From: Candidatus Micrarchaeota archaeon
GTDB lineage: Archaea > Micrarchaeota > Micrarchaeia > Micrarchaeales > Micrarchaeaceae
DNA: 27,758 bases
Assembly: GCA_021793035.1 (NCBI GenBank)
Contig: JAJYTM010000001.1
Coordinates: 1 to 27,758 of the forward strand
Reading direction: 5' to 3'
Both the position numbers and the translations under genes were made by a program. A model generated the notes under the pieces. The model saw nothing but the letters and a program-made list of their open reading frames with translations, had not been told where the DNA came from and searched no databases. Every line of letters starts with the position of its first letter. Positions within the stretch are counted from its first letter, which is position 1. Positions 5,477 through 23,718 of the stretch are shown here, piece after piece.

Positions 5477-6214
5477 TCATGCATACATCGACGGGCCTGT
5501 CGAAGGCTGCGCCTCTATGTCGTGCGGCGACTGCTTGCTCTTCTCGAGCAGGTCGCGTATCCTGGCCTCAACCTCCTTGGCCTCTTTGTCGAGCTCGCCC
5601 ACATCTATGTCTATGTCGAGTATCTTGTTTATCTTCTCAATCGCTAGCTCTGCATACCTGGGGTCTATCATCTCCGGGTTGACCTGCACCAGCAGGTTTA
5701 TGTCGCTGGTGCTGTCTATGGCGGCCCTCATAATCAGGCATGCACTTATGCCCGTAGCAACTCCCTCGCCTATCTTCTTAATGCCCGCAGCATCAAGAGT
5801 TTTGCTGAGCTTCGGCAATGACACTATGCCGAACACCGAATCGCCATCGGGCTTTTCTACCGGTACTCCGCTGAGCGATATGGTCATTGAGAACTTGTTC
5901 TTCTTTATGAACTCATTGAGCGAGTCCGCTATATGGTATATCGAAGCTTCCTTGTTGGGGCTGGTCTCGGCGAACAGCGCCGCCATCTTGTATTTCTTGG
6001 AATAATAGAGCCTGACTGGCGGCAGCGGCATATCGTTGTGTATGGATACCAGCGGCGGCAGCAGCTCGCTGTCCACATATCCAACGTAATCCATCGAGAG
6101 CTTGTTCACGATGTAGCTTATGGCCATAGGCCCTACGAGACCTGCCCCTGGGAACCCTTCTATAAATGTGCAACCGCTAAAGTCTATCTGCTTCAAAAGC
6201 TTTATCTCTACCAT
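5477..6214 (-). CDS. Proteasome assembly chaperone PAC2 family protein
   Basis: FIEGFPGAGLVGPMAISYIV, LPPLVSI, PPVRLY, ISLSG, IDPRYA and IDIDVGELDKEAKEVE motifs. Start MVEIK at 6214 (ORF track 6223, TTG). Confidence 0.9.
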   Translation of the reverse strand: MVEIKLLKQIDFSGCTFIEGFPGAGLVGPMAISYIVNKLSMDYVGYVDSELLPPLVSIHNDMPLPPVRLYYSKKYKMAALFAETSPNKEASIYHIADSLNEFIKKNKFSMTISLSGVPVEKPDGDSVFGIVSLPKLSKTLDAAGIKKIGEGVATGISACLIMRAAIDSTSDINLLVQVNPEMIDPRYAELAIEKINKILDIDIDVGELDKEAKEVEARIRDLLEKSKQSPHDIEAQPSTGPSMYA

Positions 6215-6370
6215 ATATATCAATAGTTCTGCTGATAGAACATATAAAAAATGTAGCTAAAATAATCAGTTACTGGCAGCAACGTGAGCGTTTCTCTGCG
6301 CGTTATTGCTAAATCGGAACATATTTATATCTCATAAAAGTGCGGTTTTTATGACGATAGACGACGATAC

Positions 6371-6395
6371 TTATTTAAATCTATATTATTTATAA
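6371..6395 (+). promoter_or_regulatory. TATA-box-like AT-rich promoter of the 74 aa basic protein
   Basis: TTTAAAT (6374-6380) and TTTATAA (6389-6395) lie about 15-37 nt upstream of ATG 6411. Confidence 0.55.
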
Positions 6396-6410
6396 GATAA
6401 ATGTGATTAA

Positions 6411-6635
6411 ATGGCTGAAAGAGTAGGAAGCGAAGCAATAGAGAGAGAAGACGGCTACCTCTATTATCTTGGGAAGGATGGATACGCTTGGAGAACCCCT
6501 ATGAAGTCCAACAAGCGCGGAAGGAAGCAGAAGGTTGGATCTGAGAAGATACAGAGGGCTGACGGATACCTGTACTTCATAGACAAGAAGGGCTACATAG
6601 CAAGGACCAAGATGAACAGGAGGGGAAGGAGGTAA
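6411..6635 (+). CDS. Small basic protein with an internal tandem repeat; function unknown, candidate nucleic-acid binder
   Basis: 74 aa, 20 K/R versus 9 D/E. Two 28 aa repeats share 17 identities (VGSExIxRxDGYLYxxxKxGYxxRTxM). Host-like codons, with its own promoter and T-rich terminator. Confidence 0.85.
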   Translation: MAERVGSEAIEREDGYLYYLGKDGYAWRTPMKSNKRGRKQKVGSEKIQRADGYLYFIDKKGYIARTKMNRRGRR

Positions 6636-6640
6636 ATAAC

Positions 6641-6687
6641 TCTTTTTGTTTAAATCTTTTTCTTTAATCTTTTTCTGTTTTTTTCTT
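6641..6687 (+). terminator. Archaeal oligo-U terminator tract
   Basis: tctttttgtttaaatcttttctttaatctttttctgttttttttctt-type T runs begin just after the stop at 6635. Confidence 0.7.
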
Positions 6688-14578: not shown

Positions 14579-14657
14579 ATTCCGCAACTAAGCAAAACAT
14601 ATTAAATTATTCGCTCTTAATACTACTACCTATAGCTTATGCTCATCAGTGATGCAC

Positions 14658-15164
14658 ATGGGTGCTTATAAAAACATAAGAGAGACTCTAATAAACGAGT
14701 ACAAGGCGAGGGATGACCTCTACAAAAGGAAGATTGCTGAATGGTCCGGCGAACAGACCGTCACCAGAATCGAAAAGCCCTCCAACATACCGAGAGCCAG
14801 GGAGCTTGGCTACAAGGCAAAGGAAGGCCTACTGGTGGTGAGGGTCAAGGTTGTCAAGGGAAAGCGCAAGAGGCCCAAGGCAGACGGAGGCAGGAAACCA
14901 TCGAAGTCGGGAAGGTTCTACGCAAGGGCAAAGTCATTGCAGTCCATAGCAGAAGAGAGGGCTGCAAGGAAATTCACCAACTGCGAAGTCATAAATTCAT
15001 ATTCCGTTGGGCAGTCAGGAACCCACTCGTTCTATGAAGTGATTCTTGCGGACAGGCAGAGCCCCGCGCTCAGGAAAGATAAGGAATACAGGAATCTTGT
15101 CGGCAAGCGCGGAAGGGCTTTCAGGGGCATGACGAGCTCCGGAAGGAAGCATGCGCAGAAGTGA
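14658..15164 (+). CDS. rpl15e: 50S ribosomal protein eL15
   Basis: MGAYK start, RIEKPSNIPRARELGYKAK, GRKPS, SLQSIAEERAARKF, EVINSY, GRAFRGMTSSGRK. Confidence 0.95.
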   Translation: MGAYKNIRETLINEYKARDDLYKRKIAEWSGEQTVTRIEKPSNIPRARELGYKAKEGLLVVRVKVVKGKRKRPKADGGRKPSKSGRFYARAKSLQSIAEERAARKFTNCEVINSYSVGQSGTHSFYEVILADRQSPALRKDKEYRNLVGKRGRAFRGMTSSGRKHAQK

Positions 15165-15168
15165 TTCG

Positions 15169-15405
15169 ATGCCTGGCGGCACGTACTCAGCAACGCTGCA
15201 CATCTCAAAACTGCAAGGCTTGGACTACTCAAAGATAATAGACATAAAGAGCAAGTACAAGCGCAGCAGCATATCCGTCAAAGGCGGCAAATCATCAATA
15301 GAATTCAGGATAGGCGCGGAAGATCCTGTGGCTCTGAGGGCATCGGTGAACGCCGTGATGCGCACCGTAGAGATAATAGAGAATGCCTACAAGGCAAAGA
15401 TATAG
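15169..15405 (+). CDS. pcc1: KEOPS complex subunit Pcc1-like protein
   Basis: About 78 aa with the Pcc1 pattern RSSISV...IEFRIGAEDPVALRASVNAVMRTVEII; follows rpl15e by 4 nt. Confidence 0.75.
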   Translation: MPGGTYSATLHISKLQGLDYSKIIDIKSKYKRSSISVKGGKSSIEFRIGAEDPVALRASVNAVMRTVEIIENAYKAKI

Positions 15406-15470
15406 GCCCGGGCAAAATCCGGTCCGAAAGCACCGAGAGGGAGCGAGGTAAAATATTCCGCAATTCGACA

Positions 15471-15488
15471 AAAGTAAAAATATATAAA
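15471..15488 (+). promoter_or_regulatory. BRE/TATA promoter of the uL3 operon
   Basis: A-rich AAAGTAAAAA followed by TATATAAA (15481-15488), about 115 nt upstream of the rpl3 ATG. Confidence 0.65.
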
Positions 15489-15603
15489 TGTGCTGGTGTA
15501 AAAGATATATGACTGCTGATATATTCCTTATTTCAGTCAGGCTTGGCAGATCGGCTGCTGCCATGTGAAAGTTTGCTTAAGTACGAATTAGAAGTGTTTA
15601 TCT

Positions 15604-16563
15604 ATGACTAGAGGATCGCTGCAATATTGGCCGAGGAGACGTGCCACAAGGCGCCTGCCAAGGATAAGGTCTAGGCCCAGGCATGGCACGCATCTTGGCG
15701 ACATAATAGCCTACAAGGCGGGCATGACTAGCGTATCCATGATAGACGATTCTGAATCTACCACAAAGCAGCAGGAGATAAGCAGGGCATGCACAATACT
15801 GGATATTCCAGCAATGGAGATGTATGGCCTGCGCTTCTATGCAAAAGATGACATAACCGGCTACAAGAAGGCAGTAGCAGAGCTGTACAACAAGGAGATA
15901 GCGCAGAAGCTCAAGATAAAATCGGTAAAGAACGATGAAAGCAAACTCGATTCGTTCAGGGAGCGCCTTTCGGAATTCGTAGACGTAACCGCTCTTATAG
16001 CCGCATACCCAAAGACGCTCAATGTGGAGCAGAACCATCCAGAGAGGTTTGAGACAAGCGTCAATGCGAAGAGCATCGAAGACAAATTCTCGTTCATAAG
16101 CTCCCACCTGGGCAAGGAAATAAGGGCAGGAGAGATATTCAAGCCCGGCGAGTACATAGACTTGGTGTCCATATCAACGGGCAAAGGATGGCAGGGAACA
16201 ATAAAGCGTTTCGGCACAGCGAGGCTGAACCACAAGGCGACGCAGAAGGTAAGGCACATAGGGGTCATGGGATCCATGGGTATTGGAAGAGTGCTGTACA
16301 CCGTGCCGCATGCAGGACAGATGGGGTTCAACTACAGGACTGAGAGGAACAAGCGCATACTTAAGATTTTCGACAAGGAGGAGACCGCAAGCCTGAACAG
16401 GGCCGGAGGCTTCAACAACTATGGGACCATAAGGGGATCTGCAATACTGCTCGACGGATCGGTTCCTGGGCCGGCCAAGAGGCTGGTGAGGATAAAGGAG
16501 AGCAACGGCAACATCAACCTGAAGGGCATAAAGGAGCCGAAAATAGTCGAAATAAACAGGTAA
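15604..16563 (+). CDS. rpl3: 50S ribosomal protein uL3
   Basis: RGSLQYWPRRRA, AYKAGMT, YIDLVSISTGKGWQGTIKRFG, GQMGFNYRTERNKRILKI, GSVPGPAKRLVRI. Confidence 0.97.
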   Translation: MTRGSLQYWPRRRATRRLPRIRSRPRHGTHLGDIIAYKAGMTSVSMIDDSESTTKQQEISRACTILDIPAMEMYGLRFYAKDDITGYKKAVAELYNKEIAQKLKIKSVKNDESKLDSFRERLSEFVDVTALIAAYPKTLNVEQNHPERFETSVNAKSIEDKFSFISSHLGKEIRAGEIFKPGEYIDLVSISTGKGWQGTIKRFGTARLNHKATQKVRHIGVMGSMGIGRVLYTVPHAGQMGFNYRTERNKRILKIFDKEETASLNRAGGFNNYGTIRGSAILLDGSVPGPAKRLVRIKESNGNINLKGIKEPKIVEINR

Positions 16564-17384
16564 TGATAATGGTTTCTGTCAATATATACAGTGTGGACGG
16601 CAAAGAAGCAGGCAAGATGGAATTGCCCAAGGTCTTCGAGAAGACCGTCCGCGAGGAGCTCATAAGAAGGGCTGTTGTAGCGGAGCAGAGCATGAGGCTG
16701 CAGCCGCAGGGGCACTACCTCCTGGCAGGAATGCAGACAACAGCGAAGTACTATGGAAGATATGATGCATCATGGAGGACCGGAAGGCATATGGGTATCG
16801 CAATAAGGCCGAGGGAAAAGCTCGGAGGCGGAAGGCAGGGCCAGGTCAAGCGCATACCGTCTGCAGTGAAGGGAAAGAGGGCTCACCCGCACAAGATAGA
16901 GAAGCGCCTCGCCGAATCCATGAACAACCGCGAATACCAAGCCGCATTGGCAAGCTCGATATCCGCCAGCGCGAAGCACATGCTCAAAGGCATAACCACT
17001 CCAATAGTAGTGGACAATGCAATCGAATCGCTCAAGAGCACAAAGGATATAATCAAGATGTTCAAGGGCATGCAGATGCAGAACATGCTAGAAGAGGGCA
17101 GGAAGAAATACATTAAGAAGGGCCTGCGCAGGAGCTCGAGGAGAGTGCATTACAAGAACACTGCGGCTTTGATAGTCAACTCGGACAAGGGGGTTGTAAA
17201 AGCTGCGAGGAACATACCTGGCATAAGTGTTTGCACAGTTGACAAGCTGACTGTGAATATGCTTGCTCCTGGCGGCAATCCAGGCAGGATATCAATATGG
17301 AGCGCGGACGCGGCAAAGAATGTAGAAAGCAGGATAAACGGTCTAACGCTCAAGACCCAGGCCAAATACTATATGTCGGATTAG
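16563..17384 (+). CDS. rpl4: 50S ribosomal protein uL4
   Basis: ELPKVF...REELIRRAV, KGKRAHP, KAARNIPGI, LAPGGNPGRISIWS; TAATG overlap with rpl3. Confidence 0.96.
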   Translation: MIMVSVNIYSVDGKEAGKMELPKVFEKTVREELIRRAVVAEQSMRLQPQGHYLLAGMQTTAKYYGRYDASWRTGRHMGIAIRPREKLGGGRQGQVKRIPSAVKGKRAHPHKIEKRLAESMNNREYQAALASSISASAKHMLKGITTPIVVDNAIESLKSTKDIIKMFKGMQMQNMLEEGRKKYIKKGLRRSSRRVHYKNTAALIVNSDKGVVKAARNIPGISVCTVDKLTVNMLAPGGNPGRISIWSADAAKNVESRINGLTLKTQAKYYMSD

Positions 17385-17390
17385 GTGTTC

Positions 17391-17645
17391 ATGATGTCAG
17401 TTTTAAGATACCCGCTCGCAACAGAAAAAGTCGTAGGCCTGATAGACAGGCAGAATACAATAACATACGTAGTCAACCACGATGCCACAAAGAGCGAGAT
17501 AAAGAGCGACTTCGAGAAGAGGTTCAACGTCAAAGTAAGCAGGGTAAATACTGTAGAGATGCCGAAGAACTTCAAGAAGGCATTTATAAAGCTAGCTCCG
17601 AATTATAAGGCAGGGGACGTAGCTGTGAAATTGAAATTGGTGTAA
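17391..17645 (+). CDS. rpl23: 50S ribosomal protein uL23
   Basis: RYPLATEK, NTITYVV, ATKSEIK, FNVKVSRVNT, KKAFIKL; GGTG precedes ATG 17391. Confidence 0.96.
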   Translation: MMSVLRYPLATEKVVGLIDRQNTITYVVNHDATKSEIKSDFEKRFNVKVSRVNTVEMPKNFKKAFIKLAPNYKAGDVAVKLKLV

Positions 17646-17649
17646 TCGC

Positions 17650-18366
17650 ATGGGCAAAAAGCTTAGGCAGCAGAGGAGGGGCAAAGGCTCCAACGTGTAC
17701 ACGAAATTGCCTAACACGTTCGACGTCACTGTAAAGTTTGCGCACGACATAGAGGCCAAGAAGACCGGAGAGGTGATTGCGCTGTTCAACAGCACAGGCC
17801 ACACCGTGCCTATAATGGAGGTGCAGTACGAAGACTTTTCGCAGGGCATGCTAATAGCCCCGGAAGGCATAGCCATAGGCGACAAGATCTCGATAGGATA
17901 CAAGAATGTATTCTCACTGGGCAGCGTAATGAAGCTCTCCGACATACCAGAGGGTATACCAATATACAATATAGAATCAAAGCCCGGTGACGGAGGGAAG
18001 ATGGTCCGGGTAGCAGGCGCAGCAGCATACATAAAGGCGCACATAGGCGATACAGCAACTGTCACTATGCCATCAAAGGCCAGCATAGTTCTGCCAAACG
18101 AGTGCAGGGCGCAGCTCGGTGTCATAGCCGCAGGAGGAGTGCTCGACCAGCCGCTCGTAAAGGCGGGCAAGAGCCATTACATTTACCACGCCCTCAACAG
18201 GACATGGCCAAGGAACAGGGGAGTCAAGATGAGCCCTGTTGACCATCCGTTCGGAGGCAAGCAGCACCACAAGGGTAAGAGCAGCATGACTTCAAGGAAC
18301 GCACCCCCAGGAAGGAAGGTGGGACACATAGCTGCAAGGCGCGTAGGAAGAAAGAAGAAGGGATAA
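17650..18366 (+). CDS. rpl2: 50S ribosomal protein uL2
   Basis: MGKKLRQQRRGKG, IESKPGDGGKMVRVAG, WPRNRGVKMSPVDHPFGG, APPGRKVGHIAARRVGR. Confidence 0.97.
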   Translation: MGKKLRQQRRGKGSNVYTKLPNTFDVTVKFAHDIEAKKTGEVIALFNSTGHTVPIMEVQYEDFSQGMLIAPEGIAIGDKISIGYKNVFSLGSVMKLSDIPEGIPIYNIESKPGDGGKMVRVAGAAAYIKAHIGDTATVTMPSKASIVLPNECRAQLGVIAAGGVLDQPLVKAGKSHYIYHALNRTWPRNRGVKMSPVDHPFGGKQHHKGKSSMTSRNAPPGRKVGHIAARRVGRKKKG

Positions 18367-18367
18367 A

Positions 18368-18760
18368 ATGGTAGAAAGAATCGCTTATAAAGGCTTGATG
18401 GGCGACCAGGTAAAGGCCCTGCCCAACGATGAGTTCAACAGGATGATAAAGTCAAGGGCCAGGCGCTTCCTGAAGAGGAACTCATTGAACTACCGCATGC
18501 TCAACGAGAAGATCGAGGAGTACAGGAAAAAAGGCATAGACAAGCCAATAAAGACGCATCTCAGGGAGGCAGTAATAGTGCCGCAGTGGATAGGCCTCAA
18601 GTTCAAGATCCACATGGGCAAGGAGTTCCAGGAGATCGCAATAGCGCCCAACATGGTTGGCAGGAGGCTTGGAGAATTCGTCTATACGAGCAAGCGCGTG
18701 CAGCATTCCGCTCCAGGAATAAGGGCTACGCGCGGAAGTAAATTCCTATCGGTGAAGTAA
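18368..18760 (+). CDS. rps19: 30S ribosomal protein uS19
   Basis: IKTHLREAVIVPQWIG, HMGKEF, MVGRRLGEF, HSAPGIRATRGSKFLSVK. Confidence 0.96.
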   Translation: MVERIAYKGLMGDQVKALPNDEFNRMIKSRARRFLKRNSLNYRMLNEKIEEYRKKGIDKPIKTHLREAVIVPQWIGLKFKIHMGKEFQEIAIAPNMVGRRLGEFVYTSKRVQHSAPGIRATRGSKFLSVK

Positions 18761-19471
18761 TTGGAGTATTCATTCAACAGGGACAAGTCCGAAATAATAT
18801 TCGCGCACATGAAGGACATAAACGCGAGCTACAAGGACCTGTGCAATGTGTGCGATTCCGTGAGGTACAAGAGCGTGCCTGAAGCGATAGCCATACTCGA
18901 TTCCGTCAAGGAGGGCACGCCGCTTCTTTTCAGGAGGCACAACAAGGGCATGGGCTCAAGGCACGAGCTCGGAGGCAAGAAAGGCAGGTACCCGATAAAG
19001 TGCGCTTCGATAGTCAAGAAGGCAATAGTGAACGCATCTGCCAACGCATCGAACAAGGGCCTTGATCCGGATAACATGTTCGTGGTGCATGCGACAGCCA
19101 ACAAGACAACGATAAACCGCAGGTATCCGTCGAAAGGCATACTATACCATAGGTCGGGGGGCTACGGCTATTCATCGGCAAGGCGCAGCGACCTCGAGTT
19201 TGCCAAGCTTGAACTAGGGATAGCTACCGGAACTGAAAAAGGGCTCAGCCAGAAGATGCTTAAGGCAGTGGAACGCAGCAGGAAGTATCTCGAGAAGATT
19301 GAAAAGCAGAAGCCTAAGGCGAAGGCGGCGAAAGCTGCATCGAAGGGCAAGGCGCTCACTTCTCCTGCAGGGCCTGCAAAGTCTGCTAAGAAGCCTGTGC
19401 ACCCGGAAATGCAGAAGAGGCCTGAGCCCGTGAAGACAGATGCGAACGCGCAGGAGGATAAAAAAGTTTAA
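18761..19471 (+). CDS. rpl22: 50S ribosomal protein uL22 with a loop insertion and a ~80 aa C-terminal extension
   Basis: TTG start after GGTGA; SYKDLCNVC, GRYPIKCA, NASANASNKGLD; position between rps19 and rps3. Confidence 0.93.
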   Translation: MEYSFNRDKSEIIFAHMKDINASYKDLCNVCDSVRYKSVPEAIAILDSVKEGTPLLFRRHNKGMGSRHELGGKKGRYPIKCASIVKKAIVNASANASNKGLDPDNMFVVHATANKTTINRRYPSKGILYHRSGGYGYSSARRSDLEFAKLELGIATGTEKGLSQKMLKAVERSRKYLEKIEKQKPKAKAAKAASKGKALTSPAGPAKSAKKPVHPEMQKRPEPVKTDANAQEDKKV

Positions 19472-19482
19472 TGAGGCATTGC

Positions 19483-20106
19483 ATGGCTATAGAGAATAAA
19501 TTTCTGAATGATTCTATAATAAAGCATAGTATATCCAAGTTCATGGAGCAGTCGCTTACCAAGGCGGGCTTCTCCAGGGTAGAAGTGCAGAAGACTCCCG
19601 TGATAACAAGGATAACCGTCTATGTTCTGAACCCAGGAAGGGTGATAGGCAGGGGCGGCAAGACCATAGACGCGCTGACAGACCAGGTCAAGGAGCTGTT
19701 CAAGATGCAGAACCCGCAGATAAGCATAGTCGAGGTGGAGAACCGCATGCTTGAGCCGCTTCTCGTGGCTAAGGACATAGCGCAGAAGCTCGAGCGCGGT
19801 CTCAACTTCAGGAGGATACAGCAGAGCTACCTCAAGAGCATAATAGCCAACGGCGCATTGGGGGTAGAGATAATAATCGGCGGGAAGCTCGTCGCCAAGA
19901 ATGCGAGGGCTAAATCGATAAGGAAGAGCGTTGGGTACATACCTAAGGCCGGAGACGTGACCAACCTGGTCAGGGTTGCCTATGCAACAGCGTACCCGAA
20001 ATACGGCGCCATAGGGATAAAGGTTAGGATAGTGCCGCCAGGCACTAAGTTCCCAGACCGGGAGATAAAGGCAGTGGAGGTTCCGAGATCCATACTCAAC
20101 GGGTGA
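19483..20106 (+). CDS. rps3: 30S ribosomal protein uS3
   Basis: AGFSRVEVQKTP, PGRVIGRGGKTI (KH domain), GALGVEIIIGGKL, KYGAIGIKVRI. Start MAIEN at 19483 after GAGG. Confidence 0.96.
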   Translation: MAIENKFLNDSIIKHSISKFMEQSLTKAGFSRVEVQKTPVITRITVYVLNPGRVIGRGGKTIDALTDQVKELFKMQNPQISIVEVENRMLEPLLVAKDIAQKLERGLNFRRIQQSYLKSIIANGALGVEIIIGGKLVAKNARAKSIRKSVGYIPKAGDVTNLVRVAYATAYPKYGAIGIKVRIVPPGTKFPDREIKAVEVPRSILNG

Positions 20107-23643: not shown

Positions 23644-23718
23644 GGGCTTGTAGCTCAGCCTGGTCAGAGCGGCGGTCTTATAAGCCGTAGGTCGAGAGTT
23701 CAAATCTCTCCAGGCCCA
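23644..23718 (+). tRNA. tRNA-Ile with anticodon UAU (TAT at 23679-23681), intronless
   Basis: GGGCTTG TA GCTC AGCCTGGTCA GAGC G GCGGT CT TAT AA GCCGT AGGTC GAGAG TTCAAAT CTCTC CAGGCCC A. Complete cloverleaf, C4-G69 and A73 as in archaeal tRNA-Ile; CCA not encoded. Confidence 0.95.

Follow-up and report, generated by a model that had tools for sequence, protein, structure and literature searches.

A conserved, strongly basic two-repeat protein of Micrarchaeota is a candidate nucleic-acid-binding architectural protein

What does a 74-amino-acid (aa) protein do that is encoded by a short, free-standing gene in the genome of a member of Candidatus Micrarchaeota? The question was raised by a stretch of 27,758 nucleotides (nt), here called the window, which is contig JAJYTM010000001.1 of GenBank assembly GCA_021793035.1 (contig C13 of 94; 662 kb, 74% complete). 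At positions 6411 to 6635 of this stretch, an earlier note made from the sequence alone had described a two-repeat protein and proposed it as a candidate chromatin or RNA-binding protein. Translation of the forward strand matched the quoted residues exactly, and the open reading frame (ORF) is a real gene of this tiny symbiotic archaeon. Tentatively, we read its product as an abundant architectural protein that binds nucleic acids without sequence specificity and most likely belongs to the chromatin (nucleoid-associated) proteins, among which it would be a new structural type; a role on DNA and in chromatin is a serious possibility that we hold with similar reserve. A broader proposal, which taken as a whole is doubtful, is that archaea have a class of chromatin protein that has so far gone unrecognised, and that the family is this class; its fold would differ from those of solved structures and combine Lys/Arg tails with aromatic beta-hairpins, two per protein or, in some viruses, one. 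Such a class would be a major DNA packager of Micrarchaeota, Ca. Lutacidiplasmatales and some of their viruses, and would partly replace canonical histones and HTa.

The repeat structure was examined by comparing the two halves of the protein. Repeats 1 and 2 are identical at 17 of 28 positions, as had been claimed, and this is far above the best self-match obtained in 2000 shuffles of the same sequence (mean 5.3, standard deviation 0.95, maximum 11). The description of the protein as strongly basic was likewise borne out, with 20 Lys and Arg residues against 9 Asp and Glu giving a net charge of +11 and an isoelectric point of 10.2; aromatic residues and Gly number 9 each. The family pattern seen here consists of two units of ~30 residues with the motif [KR]-[VI]-G-x-E-x-[IV]-x-[RK]-E-x-G-[YF]-[LIM]-Y-[YF]-x-x-K-x-G-[YF]. 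In an alignment of 51 members (A1), G61 is invariant, and G15, L17, Y18, G24, G52, Y55 and K59 are conserved in at least 90% of the sequences.

Searches of Pfam, NCBIfam and PHROGs returned no match above cut-off for the 74-aa protein, and a search of PDB sequences with the single sequence gave nothing below E 0.4, in agreement with its description as uncharacterised. When the Pfam scan was extended to E values of up to 10, only DUF5050, DUF1408 and DUF3116 appeared, all of them below their cut-offs, while Sul7d (PF02294), Cren7 (PF11520), Alba (PF01918), MC1 (PF05854), HU/HTa (PF00216) and archaeal histones (PF00808) were absent. A model predicted by AlphaFold2 from the family alignment (predicted local distance difference test, pLDDT, 91.9; predicted template modelling score, pTM, 0.75) is all-beta, with four main strands (residues 16-20, 26-30, 53-57 and 63-67) and two short bridges. 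This model agrees with the two Tyr-rich beta-hairpins that had been proposed, and some orthologs have K/R/S/A-rich tails. The suggested resemblance to Cren7, Sul7d, CC1, MC1 or Alba found no support, as no sequence match was obtained and these proteins were not listed in either structure search. The protein thus does not appear to be a member of the Sul7d, Cren7, Alba, MC1 or histone families, given that the sequence match fails and the negative results remove fold support. It is probably a new family and, judged from the model, probably a new fold.

The family is large and has no name. More than 300 close relatives of 73-107 aa, 72-86% identical to the window protein, are all unnamed, and the metagenome-assembled genomes (MAGs) from which the closest of them come are labelled Candidatus Micrarchaeota or Micrarchaeia. 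An exhaustive HMMER search gave 412 clusters (50% identity level) at E values of up to 1e-3, and the ESM Atlas contained only unnamed look-alike clusters. Carriers make up 259 of the 301 Micrarchaeota genomes sampled (~86%) and 153 of the 176 high-quality genomes among them. In several families the protein is near-universal (72/74, 51/54, 22/23, 64/65 and 14/14 genomes); it was not found in families f9 (0/7), f10 (0/15) and f14 (0/5), the genomes of which are complete. The two families closest to the window have a protein of 74-80 aa with an RRGRR end, extended in some orthologs by K/R/S/A-rich tails to a length of up to 133 aa. The remaining Micrarchaeota families have a 71-aa form with an MKNA end, which is also present in 17 of the 121 Thermoplasmata genomes sampled. 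Four of these 17 carriers, the MAGs AcS11-62, AcS5-107, AcS5-34 and SubAcS15-120, belong to Ca. Lutacidiplasmatales (PMC9287336, Table 1). In a tree of 100 sequences and 70 columns, 15 of the 16 Thermoplasmata sequences formed a single clade (support 99/94), the position of which relative to the Micrarchaeota families had low support (88/32). The unpublished genomes G029, G198 and G388 each count as one genome in these tallies and in those for uL2, histones and Alba given below, and no specific claim rests on them. Two contigs may have been mis-binned: L077, from a record titled Methanothrix sp., encodes a protein that hardly differs from the one in a Micrarchaeota-type MAG (L071), and L083 (G304, 3.7 Mb) bears the label Thermoplasmata, while its protein falls among Micrarchaeota families in the tree.

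Conservation was measured against ribosomal protein uL2 of the window, with the same 40 genomes compared for both proteins. Within the window's own family the two-repeat protein showed 62-80% identity versus 53-73% for uL2, in the sister family 73-80% versus 56-62%, and in other families 53-65% versus 43-53%. It is 10-20 identity points above uL2 and better conserved at every depth, and selection on it is very strong. Codon usage was scored with seven ribosomal-protein genes of the window (eL15, uL3, uL4, uL2, uS19, uL22 and uS3) as the reference. Among 677 ORFs of the genome, the two-repeat gene had the highest ribosomal-protein-like score (0.085, against a mean of -0.056 and a standard deviation of 0.078); of random 74-codon windows, 0.5% scored as high. 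Both the small reference set and the shortness of the gene limit the weight of this rank.

Expression signals around the gene are also conserved. The earlier note had described a monocistronic gene with an AT-rich promoter and an oligo-T terminator, and this stands. The upstream spacer is 187 nt long with 30% GC, and the downstream oligo-T stretch has 29% GC, compared to 50% for the window. Upstream of 62 other orthologous Micrarchaeota loci, 78 of 106 matches to TATA-like words fell at -45 to -36 from the ATG. A Shine-Dalgarno-like word (GGTGA, GGAGG and similar) at -20 to -3 was present at 59 of these 62 loci and at 15 of 16 Thermoplasmata loci, and a run of five or more T occurred within 50 nt of the stop codon at 51 of the 62. 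A scan for bacterial-type hairpin terminators found none, as is expected with an archaeal oligo-T terminator. Among 63 orthologous loci of the two closest families, 50 keep the consensus tCGACGATA.aTATttAAa, and the pattern GACGAT[AT]-N2-6-TATA has a single occurrence in the 662-kb genome, upstream of the two-repeat gene. The GACGATA words may be a gene-specific regulatory element or one like the B recognition element (BRE). Together, codon usage and conserved signals fit an abundant protein, and the gene looks highly expressed; a literature search for Micrarchaeum proteomics and for the motif words found nothing relevant to the family. The gene is usually a single-gene unit in neighbourhoods that vary. 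This organisation was counted in favour of a chromatin protein, since Hocher et al. (bioRxiv 10.1101/2021.07.08.451601) take it as one mark by which nucleoid proteins are recognised.

The charge of the protein, the K/R/S/A-rich tails, the genes that surround its viral relatives and a zinc-finger fusion all fit nucleic-acid binding. Stand-alone orthologs have average net charges of +10 to +14, and the tailed ones reach +35, whereas the repeat cores of fused and multi-repeat relatives range from -1 to +7; what sets the free form apart is thus its high charge. The repeat fold is a general module, in which the stand-alone subfamily specifically has gained high positive charge. Viral relatives with 31-65% identity were found on 19 IMG/VR contigs, where several DNA methyltransferases and, in five cases, a DNA helicase (phrog_16) are encoded next to them. 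Some viral forms have a single repeat with a Lys-rich tail (L141/L142 and L145 with 45 aa, L143 with 50 aa), and one single-repeat form ends in ten consecutive Lys; these forms suggest that a single hairpin unit can work as a dimer. In the zinc-finger fusion (Table 1), the finger at the N-terminus has a weak Pfam match to zf-H2C2_5 (E 9e-5).

Several observations weigh against a chromatin protein, and the first is the company that the module keeps. Other fusions add C-terminal zinc ribbons (P0121-P0124), a zinc ribbon and membrane helices (P0145), an M48 peptidase (P0152) or beta-solenoid repeats (P0181), and P0147 is a large membrane protein whose tail bears up to ~8 repeats. The window's own genome encodes a 183-aa paralog with two long hydrophobic stretches C-terminal of the repeats, enough for ~3 membrane helices, and this paralog is predicted to be membrane-anchored. 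That the module occurs in a peptidase and in the cytoplasmic portions of membrane proteins is consistent with a general role in binding. The stand-alone protein could accordingly be a small beta-hairpin adaptor that binds no nucleic acid and has a protein or other ligand, for instance at the membrane, on its cytoplasmic side as in the fused relatives, or together with the divergently transcribed chaperone of the PAC2 family. The lower charge of the fused cores would agree with such an adaptor, as would the PAC2-family gene, which is a conserved divergent neighbour at 52 of ~64 Micrarchaeota loci. However, the PAC2 linkage is absent in Thermoplasmata (0 of 16 loci) and in other Micrarchaeota families, the stand-alone forms are precisely those that gained strong positive charge and K/R tails, and the extreme codon bias and conservation would be unusual for an accessory adaptor. 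The HbYX C-terminal motif marks proteasome binders, and a C-terminus of this type is missing from the two-repeat protein as read from its sequence. Overall we regard an adaptor as improbable. Further neighbours in the closest families are genes for DUF192 and aldehyde dehydrogenase, those in Lutacidiplasmatales are an amidohydrolase and a class II ribonucleotide reductase, and varied genes are found elsewhere; no conserved functional partner emerged from the operon context of the orthologous loci.

The second observation comes from ribosomal operons. Two genera of the family to which the window belongs have a paralog inside the main ribosomal-protein operon, directly before uS19 (Table 1), the order of genes in G023 being uL4, uL23, uL2, paralog, uS19, uL22 and uS3, and two loci in other families adjoin the S6e gene. 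Both findings point to translation. The two-repeat protein could be ribosome-associated or RNA-binding, whether as a ribosomal protein peculiar to these lineages, as an RNA chaperone or as a factor in assembly or hibernation, in which case the basic linker and tail would bind rRNA. Conservation above that of uL2 and ribosomal-protein-like codon usage are what such a protein would be expected to have, and Arg-rich tails are typical of ribosomal proteins. Chains of uL6 recurred in both fold searches, but at chance level. The operon-paralog clade is well supported (99/96), but only two of its four loci examined are in the operon, and the main copy is never inside a ribosomal operon. The protein cannot be a core ribosomal component, as it was not found in any genome sampled from families f9, f10 and f14 or in 104 of the 121 Thermoplasmata genomes sampled. 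Ribosomal protein families gave no match in Pfam or NCBIfam, the only PDB sequence hit naming a ribosomal protein was eL19 at E 2.8, and the viral relatives stand among genes for DNA metabolism. A ribosomal or RNA role is possible, if on the unlikely side. As to the earlier proposal of DNA or RNA binding, the general part is supported by charge, tails, viral context and zinc-finger fusion, and the choice of DNA over RNA or the ribosome is not, given the paralogs upstream of uS19. In G015:C6, the junction between uL2 and uS19 is interrupted by two KaiC-like ATPase genes and a 158-aa ORF (L088 4061-5530, complementary strand).

The third observation concerns the chromatin proteins already present in the hosts. 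A reciprocal pattern in part of the data hints in favour of a chromatin protein. Canonical histones scoring 63-69 bits were found in all five Micrarchaeota genomes tested from families that lack the two-repeat protein, all seven sampled genomes of four families without a histone match carry it, and among the 121 Thermoplasmata the 17 carriers do not overlap with the 18 carriers of HU/HTa; these patterns follow few lineages and are not independent events. Alba, in turn, was found in 39 of the 41 Micrarchaeota genomes sampled for it and in each of the 17 Thermoplasmata carriers, and most genomes with the two-repeat protein have histones as well, so that these hosts do not lack a chromatin protein for which a substitute would be required. 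Complementarity with Alba was rejected on account of its near-universal presence among carriers, and the comparison with histones and Alba that had been suggested as a check gave no clean complement. In the window's own genome, a 111-aa ORF (L003 1360-1695, complementary strand, G000:C8) has a weak PF00808 match (16.7 bits, below the cut-off) and a C-terminal extension rich in Lys and Arg; it may encode a divergent histone with a tail. The Alba matches of the Thermoplasmata carriers lie in unusually long open frames of 88-211 aa, mostly above 120 aa (G301, G312, G351, G359, G367, G374, G381, G395, G413, G419 and others), and score lower than those in most other genomes of the class.

The last observation of this kind is that the model resembles no known DNA-binding fold in Foldseek or VIA searches. 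Foldseek against the PDB gave a best E of 0.32 with a template modelling (TM) score of ~0.28, an exhaustive VIA search of 48,161 representative chains gave a best Z of 2.6, and Foldseek against the BFVD viral models gave a best E of 0.39. A relative with four repeats and a C-terminal zinc ribbon, modelled as one unit (pLDDT 73.7, pTM 0.66), fared little differently (Foldseek best E 0.039, VIA best Z 2.9). None of the rows listed in the structure searches belonged to Sul7d, Cren7, Alba, MC1 or an OB fold; a missing fold match does not prove a differing or new fold.

The matches that did appear suggested beta-propellers. The protein could be a two-blade fragment of a PQQ/BamB-type propeller that assembles into a ring-shaped oligomer. 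When the 51-member profile was run against the PDB, it found only the designed 'Cake' propellers, which are derived from a PQQ-like propeller, with a summed E of 1e-8; their blades, 40 residues long, nearly match the repeat period of 37 residues. The propeller-like DUF5050 was matched weakly (E 0.021), and the top Foldseek rows were BamB chains and the 74-residue two-blade fragment 2yms. Single blades, however, are at chance (i-Evalue 64-290), and DUF5050 reaches 14.5 bits against a cut-off of 27. The element common to the family and to PQQ/BamB blades ('Cake', 6tji and others) is the word D-G-x-L-Y-x-I-x-x-D-G, or D-G-x-L-Y-x-[IV]-x-x-D-G across the blades. A similar word, GY-x-Y-F-x-D-x-x-G, also gives weak Cache-domain matches in a multi-repeat relative, and in view of these and of the chance-level blades we read the word as a common hairpin pattern and not as homology. 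The strand that would be the inner strand A of a blade is the Lys/Arg linker, the TM scores to propellers are 0.27-0.30 with a root-mean-square deviation near 10 Å, and the monomer was modelled confidently as a closed unit. Unlike PQQ/BamB proteins, the two-repeat protein has no hydrophobic inner strand, has only two repeats, and is cytoplasmic and highly basic. A propeller fragment is therefore very improbable. A search for homologs of the six-repeat relative P0151 (354 aa), meant as a way to test for a closed propeller, found none. A precomputed table assigns PF27482.1 to P0151, an accession that is not in the Pfam copy scanned; this very recent family may already cover part of the repeat.

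Each repeat also resembles a WW domain in being a three-stranded meander of ~30 residues, and repeat 1 has the order G-x-x-Y-Y ... W-x-x-P. One repeat of the four-repeat model aligned with 1wr7 at Z 2.2 over 33 residues, which is noise level. Of the two conserved Trp residues of a WW domain, the first is missing, repeat 2 has neither Trp nor Pro, each repeat has one Trp or none, and Pfam gave no match to PF00397. WW domains are eukaryotic and bind proline-rich peptides. Histone and HU folds, for their part, are helical and differ from the predicted all-beta protein.

Table 1. Positions of the two-repeat gene, its signals and neighbour in the window, and of paralogs and a fusion elsewhere
Feature	Position	Strand	Description
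Two-repeat protein coding sequence	6411..6635	+	74 aa; stop TAA 6633-6635
Repeat 1	residues 4-31		
Basic linker	residues 32-40		
Repeat 2	residues 41-68		
RRGRR tail	residues 70-74		
Putative promoter region	6353..6380	+	two GACGATA words (6353-6359, 6363-6369) abutting TATA-like box
TATA-like box TTATTTAAAT	6371-6380	+	read from sequence
Shine-Dalgarno-like GTGAT	6403-6407	+	4-8 nt before ATG
Oligo-T tract region (T5, T5, T5, T7)	6643..6684	+	putative archaeal intrinsic terminator
PAC2-family gene (proteasome-assembly-chaperone-like)	5477..6223	-	Pfam PF09754, E 6e-39; divergent upstream neighbour
Paralog before uS19	L087 3182-3400 = G023:C1	+	72 aa; 41 nt after uL2, 9 nt before uS19
Paralog before uS19	L088 3187-3414 = G015:C6	-	75 aa; 21 nt upstream of uS19-uL22-uS3
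Membrane paralog (predicted)	L002 424-975 = G000:C8	-	183 aa; same genome; N-terminal two-repeat domain 64% identical to window protein
Zinc-finger fusion	L125 3590-4171 = G002:C3	+	193 aa; N-terminal C2H2-type, C-terminal two-repeat module

Downstream of the two-repeat gene, the next gene on the same strand encodes a small methyltransferase and starts at ~6776. The window also carries geranylgeranyl reductase-like, adenosine-specific kinase-like, CTP synthase and P-type ATPase genes. At 14649-20103 and 23644-23718 it has eL15, a uL3-uL4-(uL23)-uL2-uS19-uL22-uS3 operon and one tRNA gene.

As an architectural protein, the two-repeat protein could work as follows. Each repeat of ~30 residues is predicted to form a Tyr/Trp-rich beta-hairpin after a short strand, and the pair would come together as a single small all-beta module with pseudo-symmetry. 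DNA would be gripped at its phosphate backbone and bases by exposed aromatic residues, the RRGRR tail and the linker KSNKRGRKQK, which is rich in Lys and Arg, and the protein would coat, bend or compact the very small chromosome beside Alba and divergent histones. Its way of working would be like that of Sul7d, Cren7 or MC1, without relatedness.

By analogy, Sul7d (Sso7d/Sac7d) and Cren7 appear to be the closest functional counterparts. They share with the two-repeat protein a size of ~7-9 kDa, a strongly basic, all-beta character, exposed aromatics, restriction to particular lineages and single genes with strong expression signals, and the proposed contact of a beta-sheet face and basic residues with DNA would be similar. 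They differ in that no sequence match exists, that neither is among the rows of the Foldseek and exhaustive structure searches, and that each is a single five-stranded SH3-like barrel, whereas the two-repeat protein is predicted as tandem hairpins with a basic linker. Sul7d and Cren7 bind double-stranded DNA in the minor groove, non-specifically and with kinking. Their hosts are Crenarchaeota, while those of the two-repeat protein, for which DNA binding is putative, are Micrarchaeota and Lutacidiplasmatales. A precedent for unnamed mini-proteins as major chromatin candidates comes from Thermoplasmata: WP_019177984.1 of Methanomassiliicoccus luminyensis is likewise a basic protein of 74 aa with no known domain, is encoded as a single-gene unit and makes up 1.34% of the proteome (bioRxiv 10.1101/2021.07.08.451601). 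Its orthologs are reported from Methanomassiliicoccales, Sphingomonadales and Rhodobacterales (same source), whereas the named carriers of the two-repeat protein are Micrarchaeota and Ca. Lutacidiplasmatales; judged by this distribution, it is probably a different family.

To our knowledge, the chromatin of DPANN archaea is essentially unstudied. The small archaeal chromatin proteins that are known (Alba, Sul7d, Cren7, MC1, HTa and histones) represent a handful of folds. The two-repeat protein has no name, domain or recognisable fold, yet its conservation above uL2, its top codon signature and its presence in ~86% of the Micrarchaeota genomes sampled place it among the most prominent unknowns of these reduced genomes. 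If its target is the ribosome, it would be a new ribosomal component specific to these lineages. If its target is DNA, it would be a new structural class of chromatin protein, and would offer a handle on DNA packaging in ultra-small symbionts and their viruses.

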